Shown here in pieces: positions 30,819 through 49,585 of a stretch of 64,000 nucleotides of DNA (its first letter is position 1; every line of letters starts with the position of its first letter). Source of the DNA: Candidatus Omnitrophota bacterium. Lineage in GTDB: Bacteria; Omnitrophota; Gorgyraeia; Gygaellales; Profunditerraquicolaceae. The notes under the pieces are model-generated. The model was not told where the DNA came from. It worked only from the letters and a program-made list of their open reading frames with translations, and did no database searches. Position numbers and translations under genes: made by a program. The DNA lies in NCBI GenBank assembly GCA_028715785.1, contig JAQURC010000004.1, forward strand, positions 92,662-156,661, read 5' to 3'.

Positions 30819-30847
30819 TTGACTTGGCCCGCTTTATTTGATAATAT
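30819..30847 (+). promoter_or_regulatory. Sigma70-like promoter for the Tad locus (upstream of the PPIase gene)
   Basis: TTGACT, 17 nt, TAATAT. AAAGGAG SD before ATG 30890. Confidence 0.5.
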
Positions 30848-30889
30848 CTAGCAAACCACGCGTCATCGTGAGCGTGAAAGGAGCTATAG

Positions 30890-31795
30890 ATGAGGCGCAA
30901 AAACCCGTCGGTTACTCTTGTCTGCGTATTGTCGGTTTTATTTTTATTCTTATCCGGTTGCGAGCAGGTTAAAAAGTTAAAAGTTCCTTCCAAAGCTAAA
31001 TCCTGGCAGACGCAGGGAACGGTGGTTGCCTATGTCAGCGACCTGCCCATTACCTTAGAGCAGTTAGAGCAGGAAATCCGCAGTTATAATGAATCCACGG
31101 ACAACCCCGAAGCTAAAATCAATACGCGCGAGCAGAAAATCGCCTATTTAAACGAAGAGCTAATCAGGCGCTACCTTTTGTATTTAGGGGCAAAAGCCAG
31201 GGGGCTGGATGAGCAGCCGAAAACCCGGGAACTCTTGAGGAACCTGGAAATTAATGTCTTAGCCAGCCAGATTCTCCACGACGAAATAGACAATATAACG
31301 GTTACCTCCTCGGAAATCGAGGAGTTTTACAATACCTTTAAAGACCAGTACCGCCAGGAAGAAGAAAGAAGAATCCGGGAAATTGTTTTGGATGGCGAAA
31401 CAGAAGCAAAAGATACTCTTATAGAACTGCTCAAAGGCGCGGATTTTGCCGCCTTGGCGGCACAGCGCTCAAAAGCGCAAAGCGCATCAGGCGGAGGGGA
31501 TTTAGGGTTCATCAAGAAGGGTAAGCGCGGAGGGGATTATGCGCGCTTTGATGAAATAGCTTTTTCCCGTTCGCTGGAAGCAGGCCAGCTAAGCACCGTC
31601 TTTAAGGAAAAGAACGGTTACTACATAATAAAGATAGAAGCGATCAAAGGCGGCCAGGTAAGGGCTTTATCGGAGGTATGGGACGAGATTAAAAAGAACG
31701 TCCTGTTCCTTAAACAGCAGCAAAAATTAAAAGAAATAACCGCCGGCTTGTTAAAGAAAACAAAAGTAGTCATACATCAGGACCTGATAAAATAA
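30890..31795 (+). CDS. Parvulin-type peptidyl-prolyl isomerase (PrsA/SurA-like) lipoprotein
   Basis: 301 aa. Lipobox (LFLFLSGC). PpiC domain (GGGDLGFIKKGK…LEAGQLSTVFKEKNGYYIIK). Confidence 0.7.
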   Translation: MRRKNPSVTLVCVLSVLFLFLSGCEQVKKLKVPSKAKSWQTQGTVVAYVSDLPITLEQLEQEIRSYNESTDNPEAKINTREQKIAYLNEELIRRYLLYLGAKARGLDEQPKTRELLRNLEINVLASQILHDEIDNITVTSSEIEEFYNTFKDQYRQEEERRIREIVLDGETEAKDTLIELLKGADFAALAAQRSKAQSASGGGDLGFIKKGKRGGDYARFDEIAFSRSLEAGQLSTVFKEKNGYYIIKIEAIKGGQVRALSEVWDEIKKNVLFLKQQQKLKEITAGLLKKTKVVIHQDLIK

Positions 31796-32703
31796 TGAAG
31801 ATAGAATTGAGAAGAAAATTTCCCCTGATTATCGCGGTTGTCTGCGGGATTGCGGCGATAATATTATTAAATCTTTATCTTAGAAAAAGAGAAGTTGAAA
31901 TTTGGGATAAAATGAGGCAGCAGGAGCAAAGGGCTTTGGCTGCCAAACCGAAAGTAACAATGGGGGTTGTGCTGGTGGCAAAAAGAGAAATTCCGGTGCA
32001 GACGCCGATTACTGCCGAAGACCTTACGTTTAAACAGGTGCCGGTGGAATATATCCAACCCGGCGCAGTTACTTCTCTTGAACAGGTTATCGGCCAAATT
32101 GCTTCAGGCCCGATCGGCGCCGAAGAACAGATACTTAGCACAAAGCTCCTTCCTCCCGGCAACGTCGGCAAAACCCTTTCGGAAATTACCCCTGAAGGCA
32201 AAAGGGCAGTAACTGTTTCAGTGGACAACCTTTCCAGCATCGCCGGTTTGCTAAAGCCCGGCGATTACGTGGATATATTTGCCCTTATTGCTTTGCCTAA
32301 GAAGGCTACGCCGCAGGCAAAGGAAGAACCGGGTCCGCGCTTAATTTCCCTTTTTCAAGGCATTCAAGTATTAGCCATGGGGAATGAGCTGGTCATCTCA
32401 AAAAATAAAACAAAAGAAAGCAGCACTGCTGCCGCCGCGCAAACCGTTACTTTTGCGCTTACGCCCCAGGAAGCGGCATTGCTTTCTTTTGTCCAGGAAC
32501 ACGGCAAGATCAAATTAGCCCTGCGTTCCTCGCAGGACACCAAGGTTGAGGCGGTTGCCCCGGCTGACTGGGACGCCCTGTTGAATTATTTATCTACCAG
32601 CCAGGGCGAGAAAGCCGGTTTGGAAGGCCAGCCGGTAGTCGAGATATACCGCGGATTACAAAAGGAAGTCATTCCTTTATCCGCCTCAAGTAAAGAAAAA
32701 TGA
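31795..32703 (+). CDS. cpaB: Flp pilus assembly protein CpaB/RcpC
   Basis: 302 aa. N-terminal TM plus SAF-like domain. Position upstream of the secretin is typical of cpaB. Confidence 0.75.
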   Translation: MKIELRRKFPLIIAVVCGIAAIILLNLYLRKREVEIWDKMRQQEQRALAAKPKVTMGVVLVAKREIPVQTPITAEDLTFKQVPVEYIQPGAVTSLEQVIGQIASGPIGAEEQILSTKLLPPGNVGKTLSEITPEGKRAVTVSVDNLSSIAGLLKPGDYVDIFALIALPKKATPQAKEEPGPRLISLFQGIQVLAMGNELVISKNKTKESSTAAAAQTVTFALTPQEAALLSFVQEHGKIKLALRSSQDTKVEAVAPADWDALLNYLSTSQGEKAGLEGQPVVEIYRGLQKEVIPLSASSKEK

Positions 32704-34352
32704 AAAATATTTTCAAATACGCATTTTTACTGTTTTTTATTTTGTTTGCCGGCCGGGCCTATTCCAGCGAACCGGAGCTTATAACTTTATATGTCTCCGA
32801 AGTCAAGATTTTTTCCGTAAATGCGCCCACCCGCGTGGTGATCAATAATCCCAATATCATCGATGTCACTTCAATAAGCAAAGAAGATATGGTGGTAGCG
32901 GCCAAGAATCCGGGCACAACCAATTTGCTCTGGTGGGATGCAGCCGGGCAGCACTCATTGCGGATAGAGGTTTTTCTGGAAGATATGAATTTGGTTAAAA
33001 AGAGGATAGACGCCCTGTTAAAAGAATTAAACCTTCCCGATGTCCTTACGCGGCCCTCGGATAACGAGGGTAAGGTTTTGCTTTTAGGAAGCGTAAAGAC
33101 GCCGGCGGACTTAGAGCGCCTGGATGTCGCGTTAAGTTCGCTGAAAGGAAAAACCGCCAATCTTATCCAGCTAAAAGAAGAAAGGGCGGTAGTAGAGATT
33201 AAAGTGCAGGTTCTGGAATTAAATAAAGATGCTACCTCGACTTTAGGCCTCAGTTTTCCGGGCTCGATTGATATTACCGAAATAGGCTCACCGGGGTTAG
33301 CTGCTGCAGGCACAAAGTGGGGAAAACTATTTAAAGTATCGAACGTAAACCGCGATGCGTTCACTTTAACATTGGATGCCCTGGTCCAGGAAGGTAAGGC
33401 GCGCATACTTTCCCAGCCCCAGCTTGCTTGCCAGAGCGGCAAGGAAGCTGAGTTATTAGTAGGCGGAGAAAAGCCCATATTCAATACTACCATAGCTGCT
33501 ACTACCGGAGCCAGCGGTACAAATATAGAGTATAAAGAATACGGCATTAAGTTAAAGATAAAACCCACGGTAACCGAAGATAAACAGATTAAGCTGGCAT
33601 TGAATGTGGAAGTCAGTGACGTGGGCACAGCGGACACCATCGGTACCACTACCACAGGCACGACTACGGCCAAGGCATACCCCTTAACCAGGCGCAACGC
33701 ATCCACCCAGCTTTTTCTTAATGACGGCCAGATGATGGGTATAGGCGGGTTGACAAAACAAAAGTCCGAGGAGGATATCCGCAAAACCCCTTTCCTGGGG
33801 GATGTGCCGGTGTTAGGCGTATTGTTTAGAAAAAAAACAACCAAAGTAGGCGGCGGTGAAGGGGAGAGAGGCGATACAGAACTGTTAATTACGCTTACCC
33901 CCACGATTATAAAAGAACCCGCGCTTGCCGAAGCGGCATCCAAGACACAACCGCTCCCTTCAACCACCGGCATGCCTATAGTCAGAGAAGGCGCTAAAAT
34001 TGCAGCGCCTCCGCCCCCCGCTAAAACCAAAGTAATTTCTTCTGCTAAAGAAGTAGCCAGCCAGGCGATGTCCGAATACATGCGCGAAATTACCAAACGC
34101 ATACAGGATAATTTCGTTTATCCTTGGGCAGCTAAACAAGACCAAATGCAGGGTTCGGTAATATTGGGGTTGCGTCTTGATTCTACGGGCGCGCTCTTAG
34201 AGGCCCAGGTCAAACACTCGTCGGGATACAGCATATTTGACGAGAACGCAGTAAATATAGTTAAAAAGCTGTCTCCTTATCCCCCGTTTCCTGCGCAGCT
34301 CAATAAAAAGGAACTCTGGATAGATATCCCGATTGTCTATAAACTGGAATAA
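32700..34352 (+). CDS. cpaC: Tad secretin CpaC/RcpA with C-terminal TonB_C-like domain
   Basis: 550 aa. Secretin core (GQMMGIGGLT…TPFLGDVPVLGVLFRKK…TELLITLTPTII). C-terminal about 90 aa (FVYPWAAKQDQMQGSVILGLRLDSTGALLEAQVKHSSGYSIFDENAVNIVKKLSPYPPFP) matches the TonB C-terminal pattern. Confidence 0.8.
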   Translation: MKNIFKYAFLLFFILFAGRAYSSEPELITLYVSEVKIFSVNAPTRVVINNPNIIDVTSISKEDMVVAAKNPGTTNLLWWDAAGQHSLRIEVFLEDMNLVKKRIDALLKELNLPDVLTRPSDNEGKVLLLGSVKTPADLERLDVALSSLKGKTANLIQLKEERAVVEIKVQVLELNKDATSTLGLSFPGSIDITEIGSPGLAAAGTKWGKLFKVSNVNRDAFTLTLDALVQEGKARILSQPQLACQSGKEAELLVGGEKPIFNTTIAATTGASGTNIEYKEYGIKLKIKPTVTEDKQIKLALNVEVSDVGTADTIGTTTTGTTTAKAYPLTRRNASTQLFLNDGQMMGIGGLTKQKSEEDIRKTPFLGDVPVLGVLFRKKTTKVGGGEGERGDTELLITLTPTIIKEPALAEAASKTQPLPSTTGMPIVREGAKIAAPPPPAKTKVISSAKEVASQAMSEYMREITKRIQDNFVYPWAAKQDQMQGSVILGLRLDSTGALLEAQVKHSSGYSIFDENAVNIVKKLSPYPPFPAQLNKKELWIDIPIVYKLE

Positions 34353-34354
34353 TA

Positions 34355-36532
34355 ATGGCACAGGTTATTTCTATCTTCAGCACCAAAGGCGGCGTAGGCA
34401 GGACTTTTATTGTCACCAACCTTGCCATTGCCTTGGCGCAGAAATTAACCAAAGGCAAAAAAGTCTTGCTTTTTGATACGGATTTGCAGCTGCCGGGCAA
34501 TATGGCGATGCTTTTGAATTTAAAGCCGAAAAAGCCCCTGATCGATCTTATCCCCGATTGGCGCAAAGGCAATTATACACCTTCCCAGATTGGCGAATAT
34601 ATCCTCCATTATCCGGCTACAAACATGGATCTGCTTCCATTAATATTAACTGCCGAAGAAAGGCCGTATGTAGATGAAAAATTTATCTCTTGCGTCCTGA
34701 GCGACTTAAGCAAAGAATATGAATTTATCGTCTGCGACAGCGGCAGGACATTTAATAAGGCGCTGGTATCTATCCTTGAGCAGACAAATTTGATTTTACT
34801 GGCGATTAACCCGGATATCCTTTCGGTTTATCAGGCAAAAGAAGATGTAAAGACGCTGCAGTCGCTGTATTTTCCCGTAAAGATGATGCGGGCGGTTCTA
34901 AACCGCGCGGAAAGCACGGGCGCGGTATCCTGGCAGGAGGTAAGGGCGGCTTTGCCCTGCGACATAATCAGCCGTATCCCGTCGGAAGGCAGGGCTGTGG
35001 GTTCGGCCTTAAACCGCGGGATACCTGTTGTGCTGGATAGCCCGCGATCGCGGGTAAGCATTGTGCTGGATAAATTAGCCGAGGATTTACTCGCTCACCC
35101 TGATTTTTTTATCTCCCATAAAAAATTGGAAGCAGCTGTTCCGGCAGGGGAAAAAGAGAAAATTTTTTTAGAAGAGGATATCTCCTCTCTGGAATCGCTT
35201 TCCTTAGGCGGCCGTAAGCCCGCAGAGAGAAGACTTACCCGCGAAGAAAAAATAGATGAGTTAAAACAGCGGGTGCATAAGCACGTTATTCAGGAGCTGG
35301 ATTTACGGCGGCTGGACCGCGTAGCCGGGGACCTGACAAAAATCGGGGAATTGCGCCAGAAGACAATGAAAGCGATTAATACTGCGCTAACCGATGAAGC
35401 AGGGGCGCTTATTTCCTCGCGCGAGCAGCGGGAGAGCCTTATAAAGGAGATCAGCGATGAGATTTTGGGCCTGGGCCCTTTAGAAGACTTGATCAATGAT
35501 CCCGGAATTACCGATATTTTAGTTAACAATAAGAGCCAGATCTACATCGAAAAGCACGGCAGGTTAGAGTTAGTTTCCAAGCGTTTCGTATCCAATGACC
35601 AGGTGCGCCAGATAATCGAGCGTATTATTGCCCCCTTAGGCAGGAGAGTGGATGAGTCGGTGCCGATGGTTGACGGCCGGCTTTCCGACGGCTCGCGCGT
35701 TAACGCGATTATTCCTCCGCTTTCCCTTACCGGGCCTACGCTTACGATTAGAAAATTCAGCCAGGAGCGGCTGAAGGTTAATGATTTGGAGCGGTTGAAT
35801 GCCTTAAATAATACAATGGCGGAATTTCTTAAGGCCTGTGTTGTCTGCCGCAAGAATATAATTATTTCAGGAGGCACCGGTTCGGGAAAAACCACGGTTT
35901 TAAATGTGCTCTCGGAGTTTGTTCCCGACGGAGAGCGGGTTATTACTATTGAAGATGCCGCGGAATTAAAACTTCACCATCAGCACTGGGTGCGCCTGGA
36001 GTCGCGGCCGCCGAATATCGAGGGAAAAGGGGCGATTTTCGTGCATGATTTGTTCAGGAATTCCCTGCGTATGCGGCCCGACCGGATTATCATCGGGGAA
36101 TGCCGTGGCCAGGAGGCTCTGGATATGCTTCAGGCGATGAACACCGGCCACGACGGCTCAATGACCACTATTCATGCCAACTCCACCCAGGATGTCTTGG
36201 CGCGCCTTGATTCCCTGATCCTGATGAGCGGTATCGAGATTCCCCTGCGGGCAATCCGCGAAATGATCGCCTCAAGCATTGATATGATCGTCCATACCGC
36301 CCGTTTTTCCGACGGTTCAAGGAAGATTACCCAGATAACGGAAGTTACCGGCATGGCCGATGAGATGCATATCGGATTAAATGATATCTTTATTTTTAAA
36401 CAGTCCGGCATTGACAGCCAGGGAAAAATTCAGGGAGAATTTAAAGCCACGGGAATATTGCCGACCTTTTTAGACGATATACGCAAAACCGGCAGTAATT
36501 TTTCAGAAGAAATATTCAAAAAGAAAGAGTAA
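34355..36532 (+). CDS. Fused TadZ/CpaE-like ParA/MinD ATPase + TadA/CpaF secretion ATPase
   Basis: 725 aa. N-terminal deviant Walker A (IFSTKGGVGRT). C-terminal domain has Walker A GGTGSGKTT, Asp box and His box (TIHANS) of the T2SS/T4SS ATPase family. Confidence 0.85.
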   Translation: MAQVISIFSTKGGVGRTFIVTNLAIALAQKLTKGKKVLLFDTDLQLPGNMAMLLNLKPKKPLIDLIPDWRKGNYTPSQIGEYILHYPATNMDLLPLILTAEERPYVDEKFISCVLSDLSKEYEFIVCDSGRTFNKALVSILEQTNLILLAINPDILSVYQAKEDVKTLQSLYFPVKMMRAVLNRAESTGAVSWQEVRAALPCDIISRIPSEGRAVGSALNRGIPVVLDSPRSRVSIVLDKLAEDLLAHPDFFISHKKLEAAVPAGEKEKIFLEEDISSLESLSLGGRKPAERRLTREEKIDELKQRVHKHVIQELDLRRLDRVAGDLTKIGELRQKTMKAINTALTDEAGALISSREQRESLIKEISDEILGLGPLEDLINDPGITDILVNNKSQIYIEKHGRLELVSKRFVSNDQVRQIIERIIAPLGRRVDESVPMVDGRLSDGSRVNAIIPPLSLTGPTLTIRKFSQERLKVNDLERLNALNNTMAEFLKACVVCRKNIIISGGTGSGKTTVLNVLSEFVPDGERVITIEDAAELKLHHQHWVRLESRPPNIEGKGAIFVHDLFRNSLRMRPDRIIIGECRGQEALDMLQAMNTGHDGSMTTIHANSTQDVLARLDSLILMSGIEIPLRAIREMIASSIDMIVHTARFSDGSRKITQITEVTGMADEMHIGLNDIFIFKQSGIDSQGKIQGEFKATGILPTFLDDIRKTGSNFSEEIFKKKE

Positions 36533-38808
36533 TGAACTTCTTCCGCAAAAACCTACCGACAAACCGCCGCAGCCAGATCGCCGTAATTATCACTTTTGTC
36601 ATCGCGGTAATTTTTTTATTCATGGCGGTATTTATAAATTTAAGCAAGGTAAGCCAGGTTAAGACCACCACCAGCACTGCCGCGGATAAGGCCGCTTTAA
36701 GTCTGGCCTCGCAGTTGGGCAGTATGAGCCATTATTATAAGGATAAGGTGTTAGGGGGGCAAACAGAGAAGACCGGGTATGGCTGGTTAGCGTTGATGTT
36801 GGTTTTAGTCGGTTCCATTGTAGGAGGAATTTTAATAAGTCCGGTAGTTCTTCTTACCGGATTGGGCTTGTTAGTTTCGATGTCAATGTCTACGTCTATG
36901 CTTGAAGGGATAAGCGATAGATTCAATAAAGAGATGACTACCTATACTGCCTTAAGGGAGAGCGCTCTGTTTGGGGCATTGCTTTCTACGCAGAGCGATG
37001 ATGTTGAGTTAAAAAGGGTAGGGGCGGGTATTTTCCGCGACGAGGTAACCGGCAAAGACTATGATTTAAGCGCTATCCCTGAAATGCGCAATGCGAATAA
37101 AGTAGGCAGGTTCGCTGCCTGGTATTATGCCTTGCGGCAGCCGCTGGTGAGCGATGATGATTTAAAAGAGGCCTTGGATAAATTTAAAAACGGGCTCAAG
37201 AGATTTATCGCTATTGACGAATGGGACAATACAAAGTGGAAGATTAGCAGGCTTTCTTATTTTATCGAGCCGGTTCCGGCGCAAAATTCGGCTAATTACG
37301 AAATTACCTGTACTTCCTGCCCTGCTTGGGTTAAAGATATTGCCCACAAACAAATAGCAATCATGAAAATAGACGCAACTCAACCGGACGGACCAAGCCA
37401 GATTACCGGCGGTTTTTTAAAAGATAAGTTTTTAAGCTTATTGAGCCGATTGAGCTATGCATATGGGCTAACCTTTTGCAGTAAACCTGAAACGTTTACC
37501 CAAACAGCAATCTGTGACGATGTAGTTAAGCTGATGGAAGACTTGAGGATGTTTTTATTCAGAAGTAAAGAGCTTGTGGATACGCCTATGACTGAGGCAT
37601 TAAACAGCACAACGCAATGGCTTCCTTTTTTTTACGATTCTGCGCAGCATAATCTGGATAAAAGCAGTATAGATGGGGATTTGGAGGATGACGCTTATGA
37701 GCGTTTGACTCGCGACCAGAATACTATCAATTCTTGGATTACAGAGTTGGAAAAATTAAATAATACCACAATTAAGCCCGAAATAATAAATAACCATGGA
37801 GGTTATTGCGAACAAGGAAGGCCGGATAGCGATGTGGTTAGTAATTGTTTTACTGCTTTAGAATCTTGCTATTGTTGGCATACTGAATGCGGTGAATATA
37901 GTTGTTGGAAGGTATGCGATGGAAGTAAATGCAAGACATCGCTTCCTGCCCGATGGCATGGCAATTATGGAACTTGCACAGGCAGCGGATTCAACCATAC
38001 CACGCATCCGGTCTGTCAAAAAGGGGATTTATACCAAGCGCAGCCTGATTATCTTGGTTCTAATTGGTGCAATAAGTTGAGGTCTGTCCCTTGTGTGTCT
38101 CATAATGATAGCTGCGATCAATGCAGTCCGCCTCCCACCAGTACTGTAATGGATAATTCCTACAATTTTCAAGGCCAGATGTCCTGGGAGAATACCTCCG
38201 GCCCGACCGAAGTCGAGCAAGCGCTCAAAATTCTGCGGGCCTTGAATTATGATATCGGTAGTATAAAAAAGAGTATCGAGGAGTATGTAGATGCGCAAAT
38301 AAAACATCTTACTCCGACGTGTTTACCGGGATTGCCATGCGCCCTTAAAATAAGAAACGAAATCGTTTATGCCTGGAAGGATAAGCCTAAGTCGGATGGC
38401 AGCCAGCAATTCTCTCACTTTGTGCAGGTAGCGATAGAAGGTTATCCAGAGAAGCTTCCTTATATTAGCGAAACTGTGAAGTGGTTAGGGCAGAAGAAGA
38501 CCTGGAAATTAGAAAATGCCGCAGGAGATCTTAAAATAATGGTCCGGCGTTACGATCAAGACCAGCCGACGGATGTAGGGAAAACAGATAAAGGGTGGGA
38601 GCTTAAGCGCAGGAAAACACCCGGTGCCGAAGAATTTTCTCCCAAACAATTAGAGGATATAGTAGCGGATATCCAGGCCGACGGCAAAATAGACTCAACC
38701 CAGAATTCTGTCGACTCAATTTTAGGTTACGCGATTACCAGCTGCAGCAAGGCGCATTACGGCCCGGAAAAAAGAGATATTTATATAAGTGGAACTAAAT
38801 GTGAGTAA
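36532..38808 (+). CDS. TadG-like pilus-associated protein with large Cys-rich extracellular domain
   Basis: 758 aa. N-terminus (RRSQIAVIITFVIAVIFLFMAVFINL) resembles the Tad N-terminal domain of TadE/TadG. About 24 Cys concentrated in residues 420-530. It ends in tandem TAA TAA. Confidence 0.5.
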   Translation: MNFFRKNLPTNRRSQIAVIITFVIAVIFLFMAVFINLSKVSQVKTTTSTAADKAALSLASQLGSMSHYYKDKVLGGQTEKTGYGWLALMLVLVGSIVGGILISPVVLLTGLGLLVSMSMSTSMLEGISDRFNKEMTTYTALRESALFGALLSTQSDDVELKRVGAGIFRDEVTGKDYDLSAIPEMRNANKVGRFAAWYYALRQPLVSDDDLKEALDKFKNGLKRFIAIDEWDNTKWKISRLSYFIEPVPAQNSANYEITCTSCPAWVKDIAHKQIAIMKIDATQPDGPSQITGGFLKDKFLSLLSRLSYAYGLTFCSKPETFTQTAICDDVVKLMEDLRMFLFRSKELVDTPMTEALNSTTQWLPFFYDSAQHNLDKSSIDGDLEDDAYERLTRDQNTINSWITELEKLNNTTIKPEIINNHGGYCEQGRPDSDVVSNCFTALESCYCWHTECGEYSCWKVCDGSKCKTSLPARWHGNYGTCTGSGFNHTTHPVCQKGDLYQAQPDYLGSNWCNKLRSVPCVSHNDSCDQCSPPPTSTVMDNSYNFQGQMSWENTSGPTEVEQALKILRALNYDIGSIKKSIEEYVDAQIKHLTPTCLPGLPCALKIRNEIVYAWKDKPKSDGSQQFSHFVQVAIEGYPEKLPYISETVKWLGQKKTWKLENAAGDLKIMVRRYDQDQPTDVGKTDKGWELKRRKTPGAEEFSPKQLEDIVADIQADGKIDSTQNSVDSILGYAITSCSKAHYGPEKRDIYISGTKCE

Positions 38809-41982: not shown

Positions 41983-41986
41983 AAAT

Positions 41987-42454
41987 ATGCCCAAGAAAAA
42001 TAGCTCTTGGAATTATTATCATAAAATCTTGATTGTAGGGACAAGTATTTGGATGCTGCTATTTTCAGCTATCGGAAATATTTACGCTCAAGAACCGGAA
42101 GAGGAGTCATTCAATAGAGGAAAGGATTATTTTAAAAAACAGAAGTATGAGGAAGCACTGATTGCATTTGATGCGGCTATCCACATTAATCCGAAGTACG
42201 CAGATGCTTATTTTTACCGCGGGGTTGTTTATGCGGATAGATACAAATTTGATGAGGCTCTTTTGGATTATGCCAAGGCAATAGAAATTGATCCAAATTT
42301 AAGTTATGTTTATGTTAATCGCGCAATGGTGTATTTTTTAATAAAAGAATATGATAAAAGTTGGGAAGATACGCATAAGGCAGAGTCGTTAGGGTATAAG
42401 GTGGATGAGAAGTTCCTTGAAAGTCTCAAAAAAGCTTCCAACAGGGGAAATTAA
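41987..42454 (+). CDS. TPR-repeat protein, secreted/periplasmic
   Basis: N-terminal hydrophobic segment then three TPR units (YFYRGVVYADRYKFDEALLDYAKAIEIDPN…). ATG 41987 is chosen because it lies just after the upstream stop. Confidence 0.65.
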   Translation: MPKKNSSWNYYHKILIVGTSIWMLLFSAIGNIYAQEPEEESFNRGKDYFKKQKYEEALIAFDAAIHINPKYADAYFYRGVVYADRYKFDEALLDYAKAIEIDPNLSYVYVNRAMVYFLIKEYDKSWEDTHKAESLGYKVDEKFLESLKKASNRGN

Positions 42455-42796
42455 ATGAAAATCATTAATCTAAGCAATAACGCGGTTTTGGCGGATAAGG
42501 CCGGGATGGCGGATACGTTCTGGAAGCGGTTGGTGGGCCTGCTTAACCGCAATTCACTGGAAAAAGGAGAAGCCCTGATCCTAAAGCCGGCAAACAGCAT
42601 CCACACATTTTTTATGCGTTTTCCCATAGACGTTTTATTCCTGGACAAAAACAGCAAGATTATCGCCTTGTTTCCCGTGCTTAGGCCTTTTCGGATTACC
42701 CCTGTTTATTTTGGCGCTTATTTAGCCATTGAATTGCCGGCAGGCACCCTCCAACTTACGCAAACAAAATTAGCAGATAGCATTAAAATCGAATAA
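42455..42796 (+). CDS. DUF192-family protein
   Basis: 113 aa. LILKPANSIHTFFMRFPIDVLFLD matches the DUF192 (COG1430) pattern. Confidence 0.65.
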   Translation: MKIINLSNNAVLADKAGMADTFWKRLVGLLNRNSLEKGEALILKPANSIHTFFMRFPIDVLFLDKNSKIIALFPVLRPFRITPVYFGAYLAIELPAGTLQLTQTKLADSIKIE

Positions 42797-43135: not shown

Positions 43136-43345
43136 ATGGGGTTTATAATGGCTTTTAAAAAGGCCGATAAAAGCCATCTTGCGCCAAGAAAATTCTCCGA
43201 TAAAAAAGCGCAGTCAATATTTGAATACGTAATATTAACGGCCGTGGTAGTGGCAGTTGTTTTGATTTTTGGGCCGTATTTCGATGATATAAAAAAGTCC
43301 TGTACTAAAGCTTTTAATGATGCAGTCACGGAGATCGTAAAATGA
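43136..43345 (+). CDS. Flp-family type IVb pilin 1
   Basis: 69 aa. Class III signal-like KKAQSIFEYVILTAVVVAVVLIF. Confidence 0.7.
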   Translation: MGFIMAFKKADKSHLAPRKFSDKKAQSIFEYVILTAVVVAVVLIFGPYFDDIKKSCTKAFNDAVTEIVK

Positions 43346-43485
43346 GAAACAAAGCGCAAAGCACAATCGAATACGCCTTATTGATTGCCATTGTGGCGGC
43401 GGCATTTTTGGCAATGAACGTCTATATGCAGCGTTCGGTGCAGGCGAATTTTAACGTAATTGAAGAGCAGATAAATACGCCGTAA
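43342..43485 (+). CDS. Flp-family pilin 2 (47 aa; below the ORF-track size cutoff)
   Basis: MRNKAQSTIEYALLIAIVAAAFLAMNVYMQRSVQANFNVIEEQINTP*. ATG overlaps the previous stop (TAAAATGA). Confidence 0.65.
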   Translation: MRNKAQSTIEYALLIAIVAAAFLAMNVYMQRSVQANFNVIEEQINTP

Positions 43486-43505
43486 CAAAAAGGAGGGAAT
43501 TAAAT

Positions 43506-43673
43506 ATGCGTAACAGAAAGGGCCAGAGTATCTTGGAGTACGTAATTGTGTTAACCGTAATAGTTATTGCGGTTGCTCTAGCAGCTAATACTTTAATTAG
43601 ACCCGCGGTGAAACAGGGGTTAGACGATGCTGCTAAAACCATCAACAAAGCTACGGAACAATTGCCAAAATAA
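43506..43673 (+). CDS. Flp-family pilin 3 (55 aa; below the ORF-track cutoff)
   Basis: MRNRKGQSILEYVIVLTVIVIAVALAANTL… has the G/XXXXEY motif. GGAGGG SD. Confidence 0.65.
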   Translation: MRNRKGQSILEYVIVLTVIVIAVALAANTLIRPAVKQGLDDAAKTINKATEQLPK

Positions 43674-43701
43674 TTTAATTTTTAGGGGGAGGTGAACAAA
43701 G

Positions 43702-44052
43702 ATGCTAAACAAAAAGGGCCAGAATACAGCGGAATACGCGATTCTTATCGCCTTGATAATTGCAGCAGCGGTAGGGATGCAGACTTACGTTAAGAGGGGT
43801 TTGCAGGGAAGGGTAAAGGACGTCGTTGATCATACCGGCCAGGAAGCGGAAGTGGGCGGGGCCAATTTGGGCTTTAGCGGCGACCAATATGAGCCATATT
43901 ATGCGGAGTCCGACACAAAGGTAAAAAGCGAGAGGACCGCCGAAGAAACATTGGGTAAACGCGGCGAGATTACCCGCAGTCAGGTAAAAGAAGAAACCAA
44001 GGTTGACGTAGGGGGAGTTGAGAAAGTCCACGGCACAACCGGAGCTGATTAA
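43702..44052 (+). CDS. Flp-like pilin 4 with about 70-aa C-terminal extension
   Basis: MLNKKGQNTAEYAILIALIIAAAVGMQTYVKRGLQGR… SD GGAGGTGAACAAAGATG. Confidence 0.7.
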   Translation: MLNKKGQNTAEYAILIALIIAAAVGMQTYVKRGLQGRVKDVVDHTGQEAEVGGANLGFSGDQYEPYYAESDTKVKSERTAEETLGKRGEITRSQVKEETKVDVGGVEKVHGTTGAD

Positions 44053-44066
44053 GGAGGTGAACAAAG

Positions 44067-44414
44067 ATGTTTAACAAAAAGGGCCAGAGCACATTAGAAT
44101 ACGCGTTGATAACCGCAGTGATAATTGCCGGGCTTTTGCTGATGCAGCATTATATGAAGCATGGTTATGCCGGGAGATTAAAGTCGTCTACCGATGATAT
44201 CGGCGAACAGTATGACCCCAGCAAATACAGCGGAAAATTTAAAGTAACCAATAAGAGCTATACACAGCAGACTCTTAAGGACAAAGCCACAAGTCAGACC
44301 TATCTTGACCTGGGCGGTACCGAGTCCGGCGCCGGCAGGGTGCAGAAAAAAGAAAGCCTTGGCGATGAAAGGGTTGAAAGTTGGGGCCAGGATGAGAGCC
44401 TGTATAGTAAATAA
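44067..44414 (+). CDS. Flp-like pilin 5 with C-terminal extension
   Basis: MFNKKGQSTLEYALITAVIIAGLLLMQHYMKHGYAGR… SD and leader nearly identical to pilin 4. Confidence 0.7.
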   Translation: MFNKKGQSTLEYALITAVIIAGLLLMQHYMKHGYAGRLKSSTDDIGEQYDPSKYSGKFKVTNKSYTQQTLKDKATSQTYLDLGGTESGAGRVQKKESLGDERVESWGQDESLYSK

Positions 44415-44424
44415 AATAACGGCA

Positions 44425-44754
44425 ATGCGCCGGGCGCAAAGCGTGGCTGAATATAGCATTTGTCTGGCATTGGTTTTAGCCGCGCTTTTGGGCATGCAGA
44501 TCTATGTAAAAAGGGGACTGCAGGGCAGATACAAAGAAGCGGTGGACCACGCGGCTAAACAGGCCGCAAGTGCGGCTCAATTGACTACAAGCCCTAAACA
44601 ATATGAGCCATACTATGTCCAGGACAAATTTACAGTTAATCAATCTAAGATAGTCAGTGAAGATATAGGGCATAAAGGCCAAACAACCCGGGATATCCTT
44701 GAGGATAAGGTAGGTATTGAGCAGGGTAGTAAAGCGATAAGGGATGTACAATAA
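44425..44754 (+). CDS. Flp-like pilin 6 with C-terminal extension
   Basis: MRRAQSVAEYSICLALVLAALLGMQIYVKRGLQGR… The internal ATG at 44425 is preferred to the ORF-track start 44305, which overlaps pilin 5. Confidence 0.6.
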   Translation: MRRAQSVAEYSICLALVLAALLGMQIYVKRGLQGRYKEAVDHAAKQAASAAQLTTSPKQYEPYYVQDKFTVNQSKIVSEDIGHKGQTTRDILEDKVGIEQGSKAIRDVQ

Positions 44755-45922
44755 AATGAAAATGCGCAAAACAGGCCAGAGCATAAATGAATATGTGTTG
44801 GTAATCGTCCTGGTTACCTTGGCCGGGATAGGTATGCAGAATTATATTAAGCGGGGCATACAGGGTATAGTGAAGACCTCTGCCGATACGCTGGCTGGTG
44901 AAAAGGGGGATACGGTTGTGTATTCGGGCAGCGACAAGAGTATTTTAACCCGCTATGATCAAGCCGGCAATTTACAGTGGAACCCGGTCGCGGTATCATA
45001 CGAGAGCAGGCTTAGCGGAGGTTTTTTCGTAGCAGAGAAGACCGGCAACCAAGTCCAGTATATTCATTATCCCGATACATCCGATCTTAATAATAAAATA
45101 ATCATCGGCGGCCAGGACCAGGCAAGCGGTGATTTTACCAGCTATGACTGGGAAGGTTACGTAGACGCGGTTTATGATAAAGACGGAAAATTAATAAAGA
45201 AATTTACTCCTCAAGAGGCAAGGGATAATTATTCTAAATATGACATAGTATTATTAAGTTCCGCGGCGGCCAAATCCATGGTTCAAAATGGAGTAGTTGA
45301 GCGAGGACTAATTGAATTTGGATATAAGGACCCTTTAAAACCACTAACGTTTAATACCCCCACCCCCAGAAAAATCACTGTGAAGACGTATTCAAAGTAT
45401 AGCGGCCCGAAAAGTTTAGCGTTAGCGGATTGGCATCCGGCCATGACAGCGTATAAAGAAAAAATGGAAGAAGATAAGATCGGGGGGTTTATTCAAACAG
45501 AAATAAAAGGCAGTATGGTTTATTACTACACCTTTACTACCAACCCTAAAGATAGAGTACTTATCGGCGGAGAGGATACCCGCACAGGTGATTTTACAGG
45601 ATTTGACCCGGATGGTTTTCCTGTATCGACCGTAGATGGCAAACTCAACGTGCTTAGGACATATAGCGGTTATCTAACTGACCCGGAAACAGAAGAAATT
45701 GTGGGCGTAACCGGCAGCGACGGCAAAATTTATGGGCAGCACCAAATAGTAACAATAAGCCCTGCTCTTCAAACTACCGGTCCGGCAACAGTTGCTATTC
45801 CGATGAGGACAAAGACCATAGACAATGATACGACTCAGGTTACAGGCGCTTGGGAGGCAACTTATAAATTAGGTACGGATATCTATAAACCGAAGGGCAA
45901 TACGCCCCCAATAAAAAAATAA
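44744..45922 (+). CDS. Flp-like N-terminus fused to about 350-aa C-terminal domain (pilin-like adhesin/minor pilin 7)
   Basis: MKMRKTGQSINEYVLVIVLVTLAGIGMQNYIKRGIQG… then a large Gly/Thr/Tyr-rich globular region. Start may be 44756. Confidence 0.65.
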   Translation: MYNKMKMRKTGQSINEYVLVIVLVTLAGIGMQNYIKRGIQGIVKTSADTLAGEKGDTVVYSGSDKSILTRYDQAGNLQWNPVAVSYESRLSGGFFVAEKTGNQVQYIHYPDTSDLNNKIIIGGQDQASGDFTSYDWEGYVDAVYDKDGKLIKKFTPQEARDNYSKYDIVLLSSAAAKSMVQNGVVERGLIEFGYKDPLKPLTFNTPTPRKITVKTYSKYSGPKSLALADWHPAMTAYKEKMEEDKIGGFIQTEIKGSMVYYYTFTTNPKDRVLIGGEDTRTGDFTGFDPDGFPVSTVDGKLNVLRTYSGYLTDPETEEIVGVTGSDGKIYGQHQIVTISPALQTTGPATVAIPMRTKTIDNDTTQVTGAWEATYKLGTDIYKPKGNTPPIKK

Positions 45923-45924
45923 TT

Positions 45925-46314
45925 ATGTTACTACAAATGAATAAAAAATATAGATTAGGCAGACCAAACGCGCAATCGACACTGGAATACGCCATCGTGG
46001 TTGCTTGCATAGTAGCGGCGCTTATAGGGATGCAGTTTTACGTAAGGCGGGGAATCCAGGGAAGGCTAAGAGCGGCAGGGGATGAGATCGGCGAGCAGTA
46101 TACTCCACTTAACGTGGAATCAAAAATTACTACAGAAACAACTTCAAATACGACAATAAGCCAGAGCCTGGTCCCCTTAAAAAAGGACGGTAACCCTATA
46201 TTTGACCAGTATGGTTTACCTGTGTATGGAATGAAAACAGAAGCGGGTATTGATGAAACTACCTCCAAAAGCGGAAAAGAAACATTAGGGGAGTTTGAAA
46301 ATGGTTTATTTTAA
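45925..46314 (+). CDS. Flp-like pilin 8 with C-terminal extension
   Basis: …RPNAQSTLEYAIVVACIVAALIGMQFYVRRGIQGR…. Confidence 0.65.
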   Translation: MLLQMNKKYRLGRPNAQSTLEYAIVVACIVAALIGMQFYVRRGIQGRLRAAGDEIGEQYTPLNVESKITTETTSNTTISQSLVPLKKDGNPIFDQYGLPVYGMKTEAGIDETTSKSGKETLGEFENGLF

Positions 46315-47332
46315 TAAAAAAGCGCAAAGTTTAACCGAGTTATCTGCTTTTGGCTCGGTACTTTTATTGGCGTTGTCTTTTCTTATAAGTTATGGGATGC
46401 GTTATAATTACCAGCAGGATATACAGATGCGCGCTTTTCGCACGGCCCTGGCTGAGGCCTATAACGTTACGCGGCCCGATGCCTCAGCTTCGGTTGTGCT
46501 GCTTAATGATAAGCATGTACCCGATCCCCGCGATATGTTTGGTGTAGGTAATATTGTTCCGGTGCAAGCCGAAGCCGAAGTAATCTGGGGCAACACTCTG
46601 CAGGATAAATATACCGACCTCACAGATAGATCACGTTTGCCCCGGAAGAAATATGTGGTTAACGGCAAAGAATACGAATATAGGACTGCAGGCTTTGGTT
46701 TCATTACCAATGCTGTTAAGATCGACGGTAGTGCTGCCAATCCATTTTACGTAATGCTTCCTAATAACAATGAACCACAGCTTGTGACTTGGGATAAGCT
46801 GCGTTGTTATCAACCCACCGGAGATTTACCTAAACAAGCAATGATTTTGCTGAATCCCGAAGCAGCTGATGCCGACAAACAAAAAGAAATAATCACTGAA
46901 GTTTATTTAAAGCGGGGAGAAAAATTGTATGTAAAGTATCAGGTTATCGGAGTAAGGACTGATCCTCCTACCGCTTCTGATGGAGCCTCGATTGACCGGT
47001 TGGATTTATTAAGCCCGGATTCAGGCGAGATTAATCCCAATTATACTCAGTTAAACAATGATGTTGATAATGATGGTATTCCGGATGTGACTCCCAATAA
47101 TCTCCAAGGGCTATTGTTTAATGATGAGCAGAATATCAGGCGCAGCGGCACGCTTACAATAGAAGAAACTCCCCAAAAAACTATAAGCACCAGCACATAT
47201 AGTTTTAGCAATAAAGCCGGGAAACCTACGACGATTACGCATAAAATTAGAGATAATTCCGGGGTGATTATGCCTGTCAGCTCTCCTTTTGATGGAAGGA
47301 CCAGGATATCCGAATGGACAACGCCAAAGTAA
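46295..47332 (+). CDS. TadE/TadF-like pseudopilin with large C-terminal domain
   Basis: 345 aa. KKAQSLTELSAFGSVLLLALSFLISYG is a TadE-like N-terminus. Confidence 0.6.
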   Translation: MKMVYFNKKAQSLTELSAFGSVLLLALSFLISYGMRYNYQQDIQMRAFRTALAEAYNVTRPDASASVVLLNDKHVPDPRDMFGVGNIVPVQAEAEVIWGNTLQDKYTDLTDRSRLPRKKYVVNGKEYEYRTAGFGFITNAVKIDGSAANPFYVMLPNNNEPQLVTWDKLRCYQPTGDLPKQAMILLNPEAADADKQKEIITEVYLKRGEKLYVKYQVIGVRTDPPTASDGASIDRLDLLSPDSGEINPNYTQLNNDVDNDGIPDVTPNNLQGLLFNDEQNIRRSGTLTIEETPQKTISTSTYSFSNKAGKPTTITHKIRDNSGVIMPVSSPFDGRTRISEWTTPK

Positions 47333-47571
47333 AGGCGCAAGTTGCGCTTGAATTTGTCACTGCCTTTATTTGCACCATTCTTTTATTGGTGCTGACTACG
47401 CAGCTTCTTGTCTGGTTTGGCAATAATATCGTTAACCGGCAGAAGGCATATGAAAGCACGCGGAGCATGGCACTTACCCTGGATACATCTGAACCCGTTG
47501 TCCCCAAAAAAGATTTTTATACGCCTTCTAAATTAAAGATATTCGGAAATACGGAAGAGTTACCAAAATAA
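47314..47571 (+). CDS. TadE-like pseudopilin (small)
   Basis: 85 aa. AQVALEFVTAFICTILLLVLTTQLLVWF. Confidence 0.55.
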   Translation: MDNAKVKAQVALEFVTAFICTILLLVLTTQLLVWFGNNIVNRQKAYESTRSMALTLDTSEPVVPKKDFYTPSKLKIFGNTEELPK

Positions 47572-47576
47572 TTAAA

Positions 47577-47786
47577 ATGAGAAAAAAAGGGATGAGCGTG
47601 GTAGAATATAGCTTGCTGGTTGCCATAGTAATCGCCGCGCTTCTGGCAATGCAGGTTTATGTTAAGCGGGCGGTAAGCGGACGCTGGAAGGAAGCAGGGG
47701 ATGTGTTTGGCTTTGGCAGGCAGACCTCCAAGACGATCCTAAGAACCCAGCCGCCCACAGGCGGCGGCGAATTACCAGGAATGTAA
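47577..47786 (+). CDS. Flp-family pilin 11
   Basis: 69 aa. MRKKGMSVVEYSLLVAIVIAALLAMQVYVKRAVSGR. Confidence 0.65.
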   Translation: MRKKGMSVVEYSLLVAIVIAALLAMQVYVKRAVSGRWKEAGDVFGFGRQTSKTILRTQPPTGGGELPGM

Positions 47787-47787
47787 A

Positions 47788-48633
47788 ATGAGAATATTAA
47801 TTATCTTGCTTATTTTCGGCTCAATCGCTGGTTTGGCCTACGAATTAATTCCTTTATTCTTAGAACGTTATTCTCAGCTCCAGAGTAAGCGTATGGAAAA
47901 GGCCTCGAAAGAGCTGCACCAGATGTTTATCTTTACCGAGAAACACCGCTTACTGCCGATGTTTACGATCACGCCTCTGGTGCTGGGCACGTTGGGATTC
48001 ATTATCCTGCGTAACCCGCTGGGCGCTTTAATCGGCGCGGGGCTTGGTTTGTTATTGCCCCGGATATGGATTAAAAATATGGGCCGAAAAAGACAGAATG
48101 ATTTCGGCAGGCAGCTGGTAGACGCGCTTATGCTCCTTTCCAGTTCTCTTAGGGCCGGGATGAGTTTGCCCCAGGCATTCGAGGTGCTTACCGAAGAGAT
48201 GCCCGCGCCGATCAGCGATGAGTTCGCCCTGGTGATCAAAGAAAATAAAATGGGCGTAACCTTAGAGGATTGCCTGGCGCATCTTAAACAAAGAATCCCT
48301 CTGGATGATTTGGAATTATTGACTACCGCTATAAGCATCTCCCGGGAAACCGGAGGGGATTTGACTGAAATTTTCGCAAACCTGGTGCATACTATCAGGG
48401 AAAAAAGAAAATTAGATGACCGTGTAAGGGTATTGACCGTGCAGGGCCGGCTGCAGGGGGCGATTATGGGCCTTTTGCCGATAGCGTTCGGAGTCTTCAT
48501 TTACTTCATTAATCCGAGCAATTTTGACGTAATGCTTAATGACCGGTTCGGCCAGATGCTGCTTGTCTGGGCGGTAATTTCCGAAGTAATCGGAGTAATC
48601 CTTATCCGGAAATTAAGCAAGGTGGATATATAA
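47788..48633 (+). CDS. tadB: Flp pilus assembly protein TadB (T2SS F-family membrane protein)
   Basis: 281 aa polytopic membrane protein with a T2SSF-domain pattern. Follows the pilin array. Confidence 0.8.
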   Translation: MRILIILLIFGSIAGLAYELIPLFLERYSQLQSKRMEKASKELHQMFIFTEKHRLLPMFTITPLVLGTLGFIILRNPLGALIGAGLGLLLPRIWIKNMGRKRQNDFGRQLVDALMLLSSSLRAGMSLPQAFEVLTEEMPAPISDEFALVIKENKMGVTLEDCLAHLKQRIPLDDLELLTTAISISRETGGDLTEIFANLVHTIREKRKLDDRVRVLTVQGRLQGAIMGLLPIAFGVFIYFINPSNFDVMLNDRFGQMLLVWAVISEVIGVILIRKLSKVDI

Positions 48634-48635
48634 AT

Positions 48636-49517
48636 ATGGAACTTGTGCTGATTATTTTATTGCTGTTTACCAGCATCGGATTTGTGGCCTACCATGTTTC
48701 TAACCGCAAGCTGGTCGAAGAAGTGCATCTGCCTTCCGAGATTACCGGTGAATCGGGATCCAAGCTTAAGGCGTTTAATCTTAAGAATATTTTAAGCGGG
48801 CCGGCCGGCTTTATCGAGCGCTTGTTCGGTAAATCAAGCTTCTCTTTGCCGGCCAGCGATTTGCATAAACGGCTGGCTTCTTCAAATAAAATAATGAGCC
48901 CTACCCAATTTATGGTATTAAAATTTTTCCTGGCGCTGGCTGTGCCGTTGGCTGCCCTTATTGCTTTTCAGGCAAAACCCGTGGTCCTGATCTTCTGCGC
49001 CGGCATCGGTTTTATTTTACCGGACATCTGGCTGAATAACCTTATCAAGAAAAGGCGCGCCTTGATTGTAAAAGACCTGCCTTTGGTAATTGATCTTTTG
49101 AATATCTGCGTGGGCGCGGGCCTTGATTTTATGGTGGCGGTTAACCGCGTGATCCAGGAGTTCAGGCCCTGCGCGCTTATTGAGGAAATGAAGATAATGA
49201 CCAATGAAATACAAATGGGCATCTCCCGGCGTGACGCGTTAAAGAATATGTCTGCCCGCATAAATAACCCCGAGATCAGCTCGTTTGTGAGGACGCTTTT
49301 ACAGGCAGACAGGATCGGCACGCCGATCAGCGAGGCATTGAAGATGCAATCAGAGGAGATCCGGTTGCGCTGGTTCCAAAAAGGCGAAGAGATGGCTTTG
49401 AAAGCCCCGATTAAGCTTTTATTCCCCTTGTTGATATTCATCCTTCCTGTAGTTTTAATCATTGTGGCCGGCCCAATTTTGATCCAGTTCACCCGCGGCG
49501 GCATGGTTAAATTCTAA
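48636..49517 (+). CDS. tadC: Flp pilus assembly protein TadC
   Basis: 293 aa. Paralogous T2SSF-domain membrane protein directly after tadB. Confidence 0.8.
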   Translation: MELVLIILLLFTSIGFVAYHVSNRKLVEEVHLPSEITGESGSKLKAFNLKNILSGPAGFIERLFGKSSFSLPASDLHKRLASSNKIMSPTQFMVLKFFLALAVPLAALIAFQAKPVVLIFCAGIGFILPDIWLNNLIKKRRALIVKDLPLVIDLLNICVGAGLDFMVAVNRVIQEFRPCALIEEMKIMTNEIQMGISRRDALKNMSARINNPEISSFVRTLLQADRIGTPISEALKMQSEEIRLRWFQKGEEMALKAPIKLLFPLLIFILPVVLIIVAGPILIQFTRGGMVKF

Positions 49518-49547
49518 ATTAAATAAAATTTAAATAGAAAAGGCAGG

Positions 49548-49585
49548 GCCGGATCTAATAGATTCGGCCCTTTTATTTTAGTTAG
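49548..49585 (+). terminator. Rho-independent terminator of the Tad operon
   Basis: AGGGCCGGATCTAATAGATTCGGCCCTTTTATTTT. Confidence 0.7.

Follow-up and report, generated by a model that had tools for sequence, protein, structure and literature searches.

Organization of the locus

The Omnitrophota are widespread, uncultured, ultra-small bacteria that are thought to be predators or parasites. In a 64,000-nt stretch of DNA (hereafter the window), part of a 160-kb contig of a Candidatus Omnitrophota metagenome-assembled genome (MAG), we characterized a gene cluster that is probably a conserved Omnitrophota form of the Tad (type IVc pilus) machine, situated upstream of a giant surface-protein gene. 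A first-pass annotation had delimited an atypical Tad locus at 30819-49585 on the strength of three traits: a secretin ending in a TonB C-terminal (TonB_C) domain, a fusion of TadZ with the ATPase TadA, and the lack of a prepilin peptidase gene. All three traits proved real, although the peculiarity ascribed to them did not hold, as each is standard in the loci of Omnitrophota. Domains were assigned by Pfam scans of every plausible open reading frame (ORF) of the window, with NCBIfam models as a second profile set, and comparisons were made with 81 related loci (L001-L081) holding 6,069 ORFs altogether. The components of the machine are as follows:

30890-31795 (+): PPIC-type peptidyl-prolyl isomerase (PPIase), predicted lipoprotein with the lipobox LSGC (Pfam Rotamase_2/3, N-terminal sequence)
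31795-32703 (+): RcpC/CpaB periplasmic alignment protein (Pfam RcpC, E = 4.4e-25; SAF; conserved order)
32700-34352 (+): RcpA/CpaC-like Tad secretin with TonB_C, 550 aa (Pfam, NCBIfam, AlphaFold2, Foldseek); pil_N at 32775-32972, secretin domain at 33378-33914, linker at 33921-34037, TonB_C fold at 34038-34349
34355-36532 (+): TadZ-like MinD/ParA domain with TadA/CpaF ATPase, 725 aa (Pfam, NCBIfam); TadZ-like half at ~34364-35101, TadA/CpaF half at ~35348-36340
36532-38808 (+): TadG-like large pseudopilin-like protein (Pfam Tad, TadE/G-like, E = 3.3e-4, under the cut-off)
43148-47786 (+): 11 pilin/pseudopilin-like genes (translations, motif scan), at 43148-43345, 43342-43485, 43506-43673, 43702-44052, 44067-44414, 44425-44754, 44762-45922, 45937-46314, 46301-47332, 47314-47571, and 47577-47786
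47788-48633 (+): TadB-like inner-membrane platform protein, 281 aa (Pfam T2SSF, E = 1.7e-17)
48636-49517 (+): TadC-like inner-membrane platform protein, 293 aa (Pfam T2SSF, E = 2.3e-15)

The ORFs lie at the coordinates given by the first-pass annotation, and Pfam and NCBIfam domains bear out its assignment of a Tad machine comprising PPIase, CpaB, CpaC, TadZ/A, a TadG-like protein, TadB, and TadC. The core of both its span and its parts list was right, but the span left out a conserved orphan gene (p765), a FIST/kinase/GGDEF module, and the giant gene, and the parts list passed over the 11 pilin-like genes. Among the hallmarks of Tad systems, the cluster holds a TadA/CpaF-type ATPase, paired TadB/TadC, an RcpA/CpaC secretin, RcpC/CpaB, and a TadZ-like domain, and a TadV/CpaA gene was found neither in the window nor in the 81 related loci. 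At its N-terminus, the TadG-like protein bears a hydrophobic Tad motif, its C-terminal region is rich in Cys, and homologs of it occur in many loci. The PPIase gene opens the conserved core in nearly all of the loci.

The secretin and its TonB_C domain

Pfam placed T2SS-T3SS_pil_N at residues 26-91 of the secretin and Secretin at residues 227-405 (E = 1.5e-40), and the closest matches to its sequence in the PDB were 8jvb and RcpA 8odn (E = 3.8e-27 for 8odn). The motif from which a TonB_C domain had first been proposed (YP...QGSV...LD.TG...SSG...FDE.A...PYPPFP) is present in the secretin sequence, and domain searches of 32700-34352 and 34355-36532, which had been suggested as a check, supported TonB_C on the secretin as well as both halves of the fused ATPase. 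In the secretin, TonB_C (PF03544) matched residues 471-549 over positions 2-79 of the 79-position profile with 60.9 bits against a cut-off of 24.6 (E = 1.6e-16), TonB_2 matched too, and the NCBIfam model tonB_Cterm scored 55.4 bits against a cut-off of 27.1. When the C-terminus alone was searched against PDB sequences, it aligned over its full length with the TonB C-terminal domain of Helicobacter. An AlphaFold2 model built from a 117-sequence alignment had a predicted local distance difference test score (pLDDT) of 92-97 at residues 447-550 and of ~40 at the linker, residues 408-446. With the whole model, Foldseek ranked secretins first (9wfd/8jvb, RcpA 8odn); with the TonB_C part, it returned 5lw8 (template modeling score [TM-score] 0.75, root-mean-square deviation [rmsd] 2.4 Å) and 9dc4_T (TM-score 0.77, rmsd 1.5 Å), with further matches to FusB, HasB, and TolA. 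Profile matches and the structure model thus identify the protein as a predicted secretin with a true TonB_C end domain of the beta-beta-alpha-beta fold.

The sequence between the two parts is a disordered stretch of variable length in which Pro, Lys, Glu, and Ala are frequent. A search of 1.84 billion cluster representatives (50% identity) returned 314 proteins at E ≤ 1e-30, and in the best 150 of these the linker has a median length of 40 aa (range, 10-352 aa). Throughout the secretin family, TonB_C keeps its YP and SSG motifs without exception, and ten distant members (P0273, P0276, P0284, P0286, P0287, P0292, P0314, P0333, P0378, and P0387) carry two tandem TonB_C-like copies. The N-terminus of the secretin is a signal peptide followed by the secretin domains, with no inner-membrane anchor of the kind that begins a TonB protein, and Pfam scans of the window recovered no ExbB/ExbD, TolQ/TolR, or TonB-dependent receptor genes.

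An NCBI entry identical (100%) to this secretin is named "TonB family protein [Candidatus Omnitrophica bacterium]", a name that is misleading because the protein has no inner-membrane anchor and the window has no ExbB/ExbD. Database names mislead for both fusions, the secretins being listed as "TonB family protein" and the ATPases as "septum site-determining protein MinD" or as a generic ATPase of type II secretion systems (T2SS) or type IV pili. Since no paper in the searchable literature joins RcpA or CpaC with TonB C-terminal terms, the architecture of a secretin fused to TonB_C appears to be undescribed there, though it is visible in public annotations.

The fused ATPase

The first-pass annotation had also read TadZ and TadA as a single 725-aa polypeptide, and the profiles agree: AAA_31/CbiA/ParA families cover residues 2-190 and T2SSE residues 372-647 (E = 4.9e-62), and among NCBIfam models, minD_arch covers residues 4-249, a "KGGVGR-motif variant AAA ATPase" domain is matched, and the TadA family covers residues 332-662. 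The TadA-family model TIGR03819 scored 348 bits, slightly under its equivalog cut-off of 373. The Walker A motif of the TadZ-like domain, KGGVGRT, fits the TadZ pattern K/RGGxGxS/T (preprint 10.64898/2026.07.08.737194). In an 18-sequence alignment, on which motif conservation was judged, K11, G12, G13, G15, and T17 of this domain are invariant, as are the Walker A (GGTGSGKTT), Asp box, Walker B, and His box of the TadA half. The receiver domain of TadZ/CpaE proper was not found in the protein, whose MinD-like domain begins at residue 2. On these sequence features, a TadZ-like MinD/ParA domain and a TadA/CpaF ATPase are predicted to form one polypeptide.

Some genomes have a further ATPase upstream of the locus, a stand-alone PilB3-like T2SSE protein of 450-490 aa. 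It occurs in L007 (1851-3329, minus strand), where it adjoins TolC/HlyD/MacB export genes, and similarly in L008 and L010; this ATPase is absent from the window.

Pilin-like genes and the prepilin peptidase

Pilin-like genes were sought with the motif [G/A]|Q(S/N/V)xxE[Y/L/F] after a short basic leader and before a hydrophobic helix, which matched 11 times at 43148-47786 and once elsewhere on the forward strand of the window. Across the 81 loci, the scan returned 382 pilin-like ORFs, with 4-12 per locus and a median of eight per full-length locus; position +1 is Gln in 361 of the 382 and position +6 is Tyr in 310, whereas position -1 is G or A equally. Some of the proteins are large (345-392 aa). 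Flp_Fap scored at most 18.6 bits on the pilin-like ORFs against a cut-off of 32.2, and a G/XXXXEY-type motif was found in 11 ORFs. A Gln at +1 is a mark of class III signal peptides of the archaeal EppA type, not of classical bacterial pilins, and would permit an N-terminal pyroglutamate.

With 11 substrates bearing a canonical cleavage site, a prepilin peptidase is to be expected. The first-pass annotation had seen none at 30.8-49.6 kb and had allowed that a TadV gene might lie just outside that span. Pfam recovered Peptidase_A24 from none of the plausible ORFs in the window, whose six frames contain no GxGD motif in a membrane context, so that the reported absence extends to the rest of the 64 kb. 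In the 81 loci, no Peptidase_A24 was among the families listed for the membrane ORFs (59 Pfam-scanned), none was among the families listed (25/26) when 22 small membrane candidates were rescanned with Pfam, and none of the 6,069 ORFs had a GxGD motif in a hydrophobic context.

The supplement of PMC10066038 gives readable Pfam lists for two Omnitrophota genomes, and both lists include PF01478. Elsewhere, the TXSScan model counts tadV as a "loner" and MSH loci never carry a peptidase (PMC6668835); peptidases are known that are unlinked and common to several systems (PMC6668835; PMC8460266), that of the Myxococcus Kil system being dispensable and replaceable (PMC8460266); and the tad loci of Bdellovibrio are without TadV, with the type IVa pilus peptidase PilD cleaving Flp1 in E. 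coli (preprint 10.64898/2026.07.08.737194). By analogy with these systems, an unlinked prepilin peptidase is ordinary, not exceptional.

Glycosylation genes (PMT_2 membrane proteins with TPR, STT3, Wzy_C, and GT2) often flank the locus, as at L001 3724-6013 and in the upstream regions of L014, L021, L028, and L040. The window itself has two GT2 genes and one for a Wzy_C protein at 19902-24095, on the upstream side of the locus. Glycosylation of the pilins is a possibility that these flanking genes raise.

Conservation across the Omnitrophota

A one-genome-per-species scan with the secretin found 196 relatives, of which the best 80 loci were compared; all of these align with the secretin over residues ~1-550 and, with few exceptions, bear an Omnitrophota label. 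Among the matches listed, numbering at least 120 for each protein, Secretin and TonB_C occur together in 120 of 120 secretin homologs, and ParA-type and T2SSE domains occur together at ~720 aa in about 115 of 120 ATPase homologs. The exceptions among the latter are mostly shorter sequences on short contigs, along with one 1,158-aa protein with another domain set. Down to 30% identity, the C-terminal TonB_C-like domain is present in 145 of the 150 best cluster representatives, and four of the five without it are incomplete sequences. An archaeal MAG is named as the source of one of the most distant fusion proteins, probably through a binning error.

The usual gene order in the 81 loci runs from the lipoprotein PPIase through RcpC, the secretin with TonB_C, the TadZ-TadA fusion, DUF192, and a p765 homolog to several pilin-like genes, a 250-390-aa pseudopilin-like protein, a TadG-like protein, and TadB/TadC. 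The window and L002-L005 share another arrangement, in which the TadG-like gene, a gene for a fused GH3 and PIG-L enzyme, and a TPR gene stand between the ATPase and DUF192 genes, and p765 lies upstream of the PPIase. As judged from these sequence comparisons, both fusions and the unlinked peptidase are the norm in a large, phylum-wide Omnitrophota family and not a local oddity.

Accessory and neighboring genes

Further genes lie within the cluster or beside it:

24297-25280 (-): REC-GGDEF response regulator (Pfam)
25237-26715 (-): GAF-HisKA-HATPase histidine kinase (Pfam)
26717-27904 (-): FIST sensor (Pfam)
28486-30783 (+): p765, conserved 765-aa orphan protein (homologs in ~60 of 81 loci)
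38989-41982 (+): GH3 (NagZ-like beta-N-acetylhexosaminidase) with PIG-L-family de-N-acetylase, 997 aa (Pfam, NCBIfam)
41987-42454 (+): secreted TPR protein (Pfam TPR families, signal-peptide-like N-terminus)
42455-42796 (+): DUF192 (COG1430), small cytoplasmic protein (Pfam DUF192, E = 2.3e-16)
52008-64000 (+): start of a giant gene, open for 3,997 codons or more and continuing past the window end (open-frame scan)

The GH3 and PIG-L enzyme (Pfam Glyco_hydro_3, E = 2.2e-45; PIG-L, E = 3.1e-34) is fused likewise in L001-L005 and L011, and its possible targets are glycans containing GlcNAc, whether in the cell's own wall, in that of prey, or on the pilins. The TPR protein resembles TadD except that it has no lipobox. 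The DUF192 gene comes directly after the ATPase gene in most of the 81 loci; a literature search on DUF192/COG1430 gave nothing relevant, and an archaeal pilus census does not mention the family.

The p765 protein consists of an HTH-like N-terminal part of ~68 aa, a coiled coil with many Lys, Glu, and Ala residues, and, at the C-terminus, a domain of ~440 aa; it had no Pfam, NCBIfam, or PDB sequence match. Its homologs, present in about 60 of the 81 loci, usually lie between DUF192 and the pilin genes, and the family is annotated only from Omnitrophota save for one MAG labelled Nitrospirota. AlphaFold2 modeled the C-terminal 447 aa with a pLDDT of 86.5 and a predicted template modeling score of 0.88, and the five top Foldseek matches to this model were all Tn5 transposase, at weak similarity (E = 5e-3 to 2e-2, TM-score ~0.25). 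The motif AYLNRWPNFEEAYQDFSRK recalls the YxxRWxIE...K motif of IS4/IS5-type transposases. A search around p765 for terminal inverted repeats like those of insertion sequences gave chance-level weak pairs at most, and that the gene keeps its place in ~60 loci speaks against mobility. Together, these features suggest that p765 is a domesticated transposase-derived protein, for which regulation or rearrangement of the pilin array may be considered as candidate roles. About 60 nt upstream of its start codon, at 28375-28423, lies a perfect 24-nt inverted repeat (AATAGGGACAGCCATTTTTTATTT and its complement) with 1 nt between the arms, for which a terminator or an operator are possibilities.

The FIST/kinase/GGDEF operon (24297-27904) runs divergently from the locus, and since homologs of all three of its proteins occupy the same upstream position in 34-40 of the 81 loci, cyclic di-GMP control of the machine is suggested. 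On the other side, the giant ORF has a start codon at 52011 (MNTKQ...), an N-terminal transmembrane or signal segment, and a weak C39-peptidase-like region (NCGINAL; Pfam Peptidase_C39, E = 2.4e-4); L001 has a 32,492-aa gene at the matching position after TadC. A Tad/T2SS-like locus upstream of giant genes has been reported before (bioRxiv 10.1101/2023.11.21.568195).

Relation to described systems

Seymour et al. 2023 (PMC10066038) called the locus the Omnitrophota "Tad complex", and West-Roberts et al. 2023 described a "T2SS-like locus" made up of gspD/E/F and rcpC together with a gene for a Rotamase_2 PPIase and small genes with class III signals (bioRxiv 10.1101/2023.11.21.568195). Both correspond to the locus described here, which has the same secretin, ATPase, two platform proteins, rcpC, PPIase, and giant gene downstream. 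Neither PMC10066038 nor bioRxiv 10.1101/2023.11.21.568195 mentions "secretin", "TonB", "prepilin", "TadV", or the fusions, and the TonB_C tail, the TadZ-TadA fusion, the absent peptidase, p765, and the FIST/kinase/GGDEF module, as worked out here, go beyond those two papers. A 2026 Omnitrophota preprint noted "TonB-domain" genes flanking giant genes that were not recognised as secretins.

The canonical Tad/Cpa systems (A. actinomycetemcomitans tad, Caulobacter cpa, P. aeruginosa rcp-tad; RcpA-TadD structure 8odn) have in common with this locus TadA/CpaF, TadB/TadC, RcpC/CpaB, an RcpA/CpaC secretin with pil_N, TadG-like and pilin genes, and the G/XXXXEY-type motif. They differ in having a separate TadZ with a receiver-like domain, a TadV/CpaA that is usually linked, a TadD lipoprotein pilotin, and RcpB, and in having one or two Flp genes as opposed to 11 and a secretin without TonB_C. 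Closer in architecture is the TadZA of Bdellovibrio bacteriovorus, which likewise joins a receiver-less TadZ, a linker, and TadA in one polypeptide (preprint 10.64898/2026.07.08.737194). Bdellovibrio is also alike in the lack of TadV in its tad loci, in its predatory lifestyle, and in the processing of Flp1 by PilD in trans; it differs in that its tad genes are dispersed with tadC separate, and no TonB_C on its secretin is mentioned (10.64898/2026.07.08.737194). The TadB/TadC of Omnitrophota group with those of Bdellovibrionales, and the RcpA is reported to be unrelated to Bdellovibrionales RcpA (PMC10066038). By this comparison, Bdellovibrio provides a direct precedent, as far as architecture goes, for the TadZ-TadA fusion and for the missing TadV. 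Myxococcus xanthus Kil is another Tad-like system of a predator, with an atypical secretin and an ATPase, KilF, that carries an N-terminal FHA fusion; its ATPase thus has another fusion partner, no TonB_C is mentioned for its short KilC secretin, and the kil genes lie in two clusters (PMC8460266).

The TonB_C domain itself shares with TonB/TolA C-terminal domains (5lw8 of H. pylori, 9dc4_T of Neisseria, FusB 7zc8) the fold, the YP/SSG signature, and a Pro/Lys/Glu-rich spacer, but it is without an N-terminal inner-membrane anchor or an ExbBD context and is tethered to an outer-membrane channel, so that classical transduction of the proton-motive force would not be expected. The whole would be a lineage-specific variant of a known system, in which the fusion of secretin and TonB_C is apparently the undescribed part, and the first-pass interpretation was mostly right, having overstated the unusualness of two of the three features.

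Proposed mechanism and alternatives

In the mechanism that we consider probable, a hexameric TadA/CpaF-type ATPase would polymerize the pilins from the TadB/TadC platform through RcpC and the secretin into a filament serving contact with host or prey. Fusion of TadZ to TadA would couple a positioning or recruitment module to the motor 1:1, as in Bdellovibrio TadZA, the TadZ-linker region of which binds the polarity hub RomR (preprint 10.64898/2026.07.08.737194). On the periplasmic face of the outer membrane, a ring of tethered TonB_C domains would anchor or dock the pore by binding peptidoglycan, or a partner strand by beta-augmentation as on TonB boxes, and would replace the N0 or AMIN domains or the pilotin by which other secretins are anchored. 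Envelope tethering or partner docking is the likely role of TonB_C as judged from its sequence, and the shortest linkers, of ~10 aa, would place the partner close to the outer membrane. The pilins would be cut by a PilD- or EppA-like A24 peptidase encoded elsewhere in the genome. Several observations weigh against this account. The TadZ-like domain is without the receiver-like domain typical of TadZ, and NCBIfam MinD models score best on it; a TadD-type lipoprotein pilotin and RcpB were not recognised; the pilins of the window fall under the Pfam cut-offs for Class_IIIsignal, Flp_Fap, Flp1_like, and N_methyl; no A24 peptidase for them was found in the 64 kb covered of the 160-kb contig; neither a TonB-box protein, as a partner for TonB_C, nor ExbB/ExbD was seen in the window; and an adhesive pilus and a secretion piston are alike as far as sequence can tell.

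The last point leads to the possibility, which we regard as rather unlikely, that the locus encodes a T2SS-like machine whose short pseudopilus, in place of an adhesive retractile pilus, acts as a piston for export of hydrolases (the GH3 and PIG-L enzyme, for example) or of the giant protein, whole or in fragments. The locus has been described as T2SS-like and consistently upstream of giant genes (bioRxiv 10.1101/2023.11.21.568195), an adjacency seen also in the window and L001; each locus has 4-12 pilin-like genes, several of them large, and the cluster includes a lipoprotein PPIase chaperone and a glycan-processing enzyme. Yet the parts are of Tad type (the TadB/TadC pair, RcpC, a CpaF-like ATPase, an RcpA-like secretin), the T2SS models GspD and GspE score far under their cut-offs (138 bits against 351 and 47 against 630, respectively), Pfam scans of the locus ORFs recovered no GspC, GspL, or GspM domains, and the giant proteins have transmembrane segments of their own and SecA-like domains (bioRxiv 10.1101/2023.11.21.568195). 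More doubtful is a TonB_C that works as a true TonB head, coupling the secretin to an ExbBD/TolQR-type motor or to TonB-box outer-membrane proteins and gating or energizing the pore. The canonical motifs and fold of TonB_C are kept, the linker resembles a TonB spacer, and type IVa pili of P. aeruginosa need PocAB-TonB3, homologs of ExbBD-TonB, for which a contact of TonB3 with the N0 domain of PilQ has been speculated (PMC5285504). Against this, the domain sits on an outer-membrane protein with no inner-membrane anchor to receive the proton-motive force, the genes of such a motor and TonB-dependent receptors are missing from the window, an architecture of the TonB-dependent receptor type is reported to be absent around giant loci (2026 Omnitrophota preprint), and some linkers measure ~10 aa. 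Classical energy transduction by the domain is unlikely, given the lack of an inner-membrane anchor and of nearby ExbBD or TonB-dependent receptor genes.

Maturation of the pilins by a new non-A24 enzyme of the locus, for example DUF192 or p765, seems very improbable. No A24 gene occurs in the 81 loci, DUF192 and p765 are conserved members without a known role, and the +1 Gln signal is unlike that of classical bacterial pilins; but neither protein has transmembrane segments, whereas the cleavage is intramembrane, A24 genes exist in the Omnitrophota genomes with readable Pfam lists (PMC10066038), and sharing of a peptidase in trans is well documented (PMC6668835; PMC8460266; 10.64898/2026.07.08.737194). 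The idea that the fusions are neighboring genes joined artificially in sequencing, assembly, or ORF calling, for which nothing speaks beyond the prior suspicion due to a window taken from a MAG, was rejected on comparative data and has a negligible likelihood, as the fusions form the same uninterrupted frames in hundreds of independent assemblies (NCBI, JGI, ENA, Logan) at 30-93% identity.

Within the Tad account, the locus and the adjoining giant gene are the leading candidate for the host-contact machinery of Omnitrophota. A TonB-headed secretin, a motor fused to its positioning module, ~11 pilins with an archaeal-style +1 Gln signal, a putative transposase-derived protein, and a cyclic di-GMP module all offer handles for structural and cell-biological work, for which V. 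archaeovorus co-cultures are one system. The fusion of secretin and TonB_C is a natural experiment on secretin anchoring and may bear on whether TonB-like domains contact secretins at all. As a speculation to which we assign a low probability, the phylum-wide fusion could be read as a "Rosetta stone", in which a ring of 13-15 tethered heads catches a beta-strand of some partner, perhaps the adjacent giant protein or the machinery that exports it, and so docks or gates the pore; if true, this would explain physically why assembly of the Pseudomonas type IVa pilus needs TonB3/PocAB, a need that has long lacked an explanation.

Genes between TadC and the giant gene

The interval between TadC and the giant gene holds the following:

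49630-50136 and 50944-51456: two paralogous ORF6N-domain genes
50168-50696 (-): ParE-type toxin with a small upstream ORF

Together, the ORF6N genes and the ParE toxin (49630-51456) look like mobile or addiction-module insertions.

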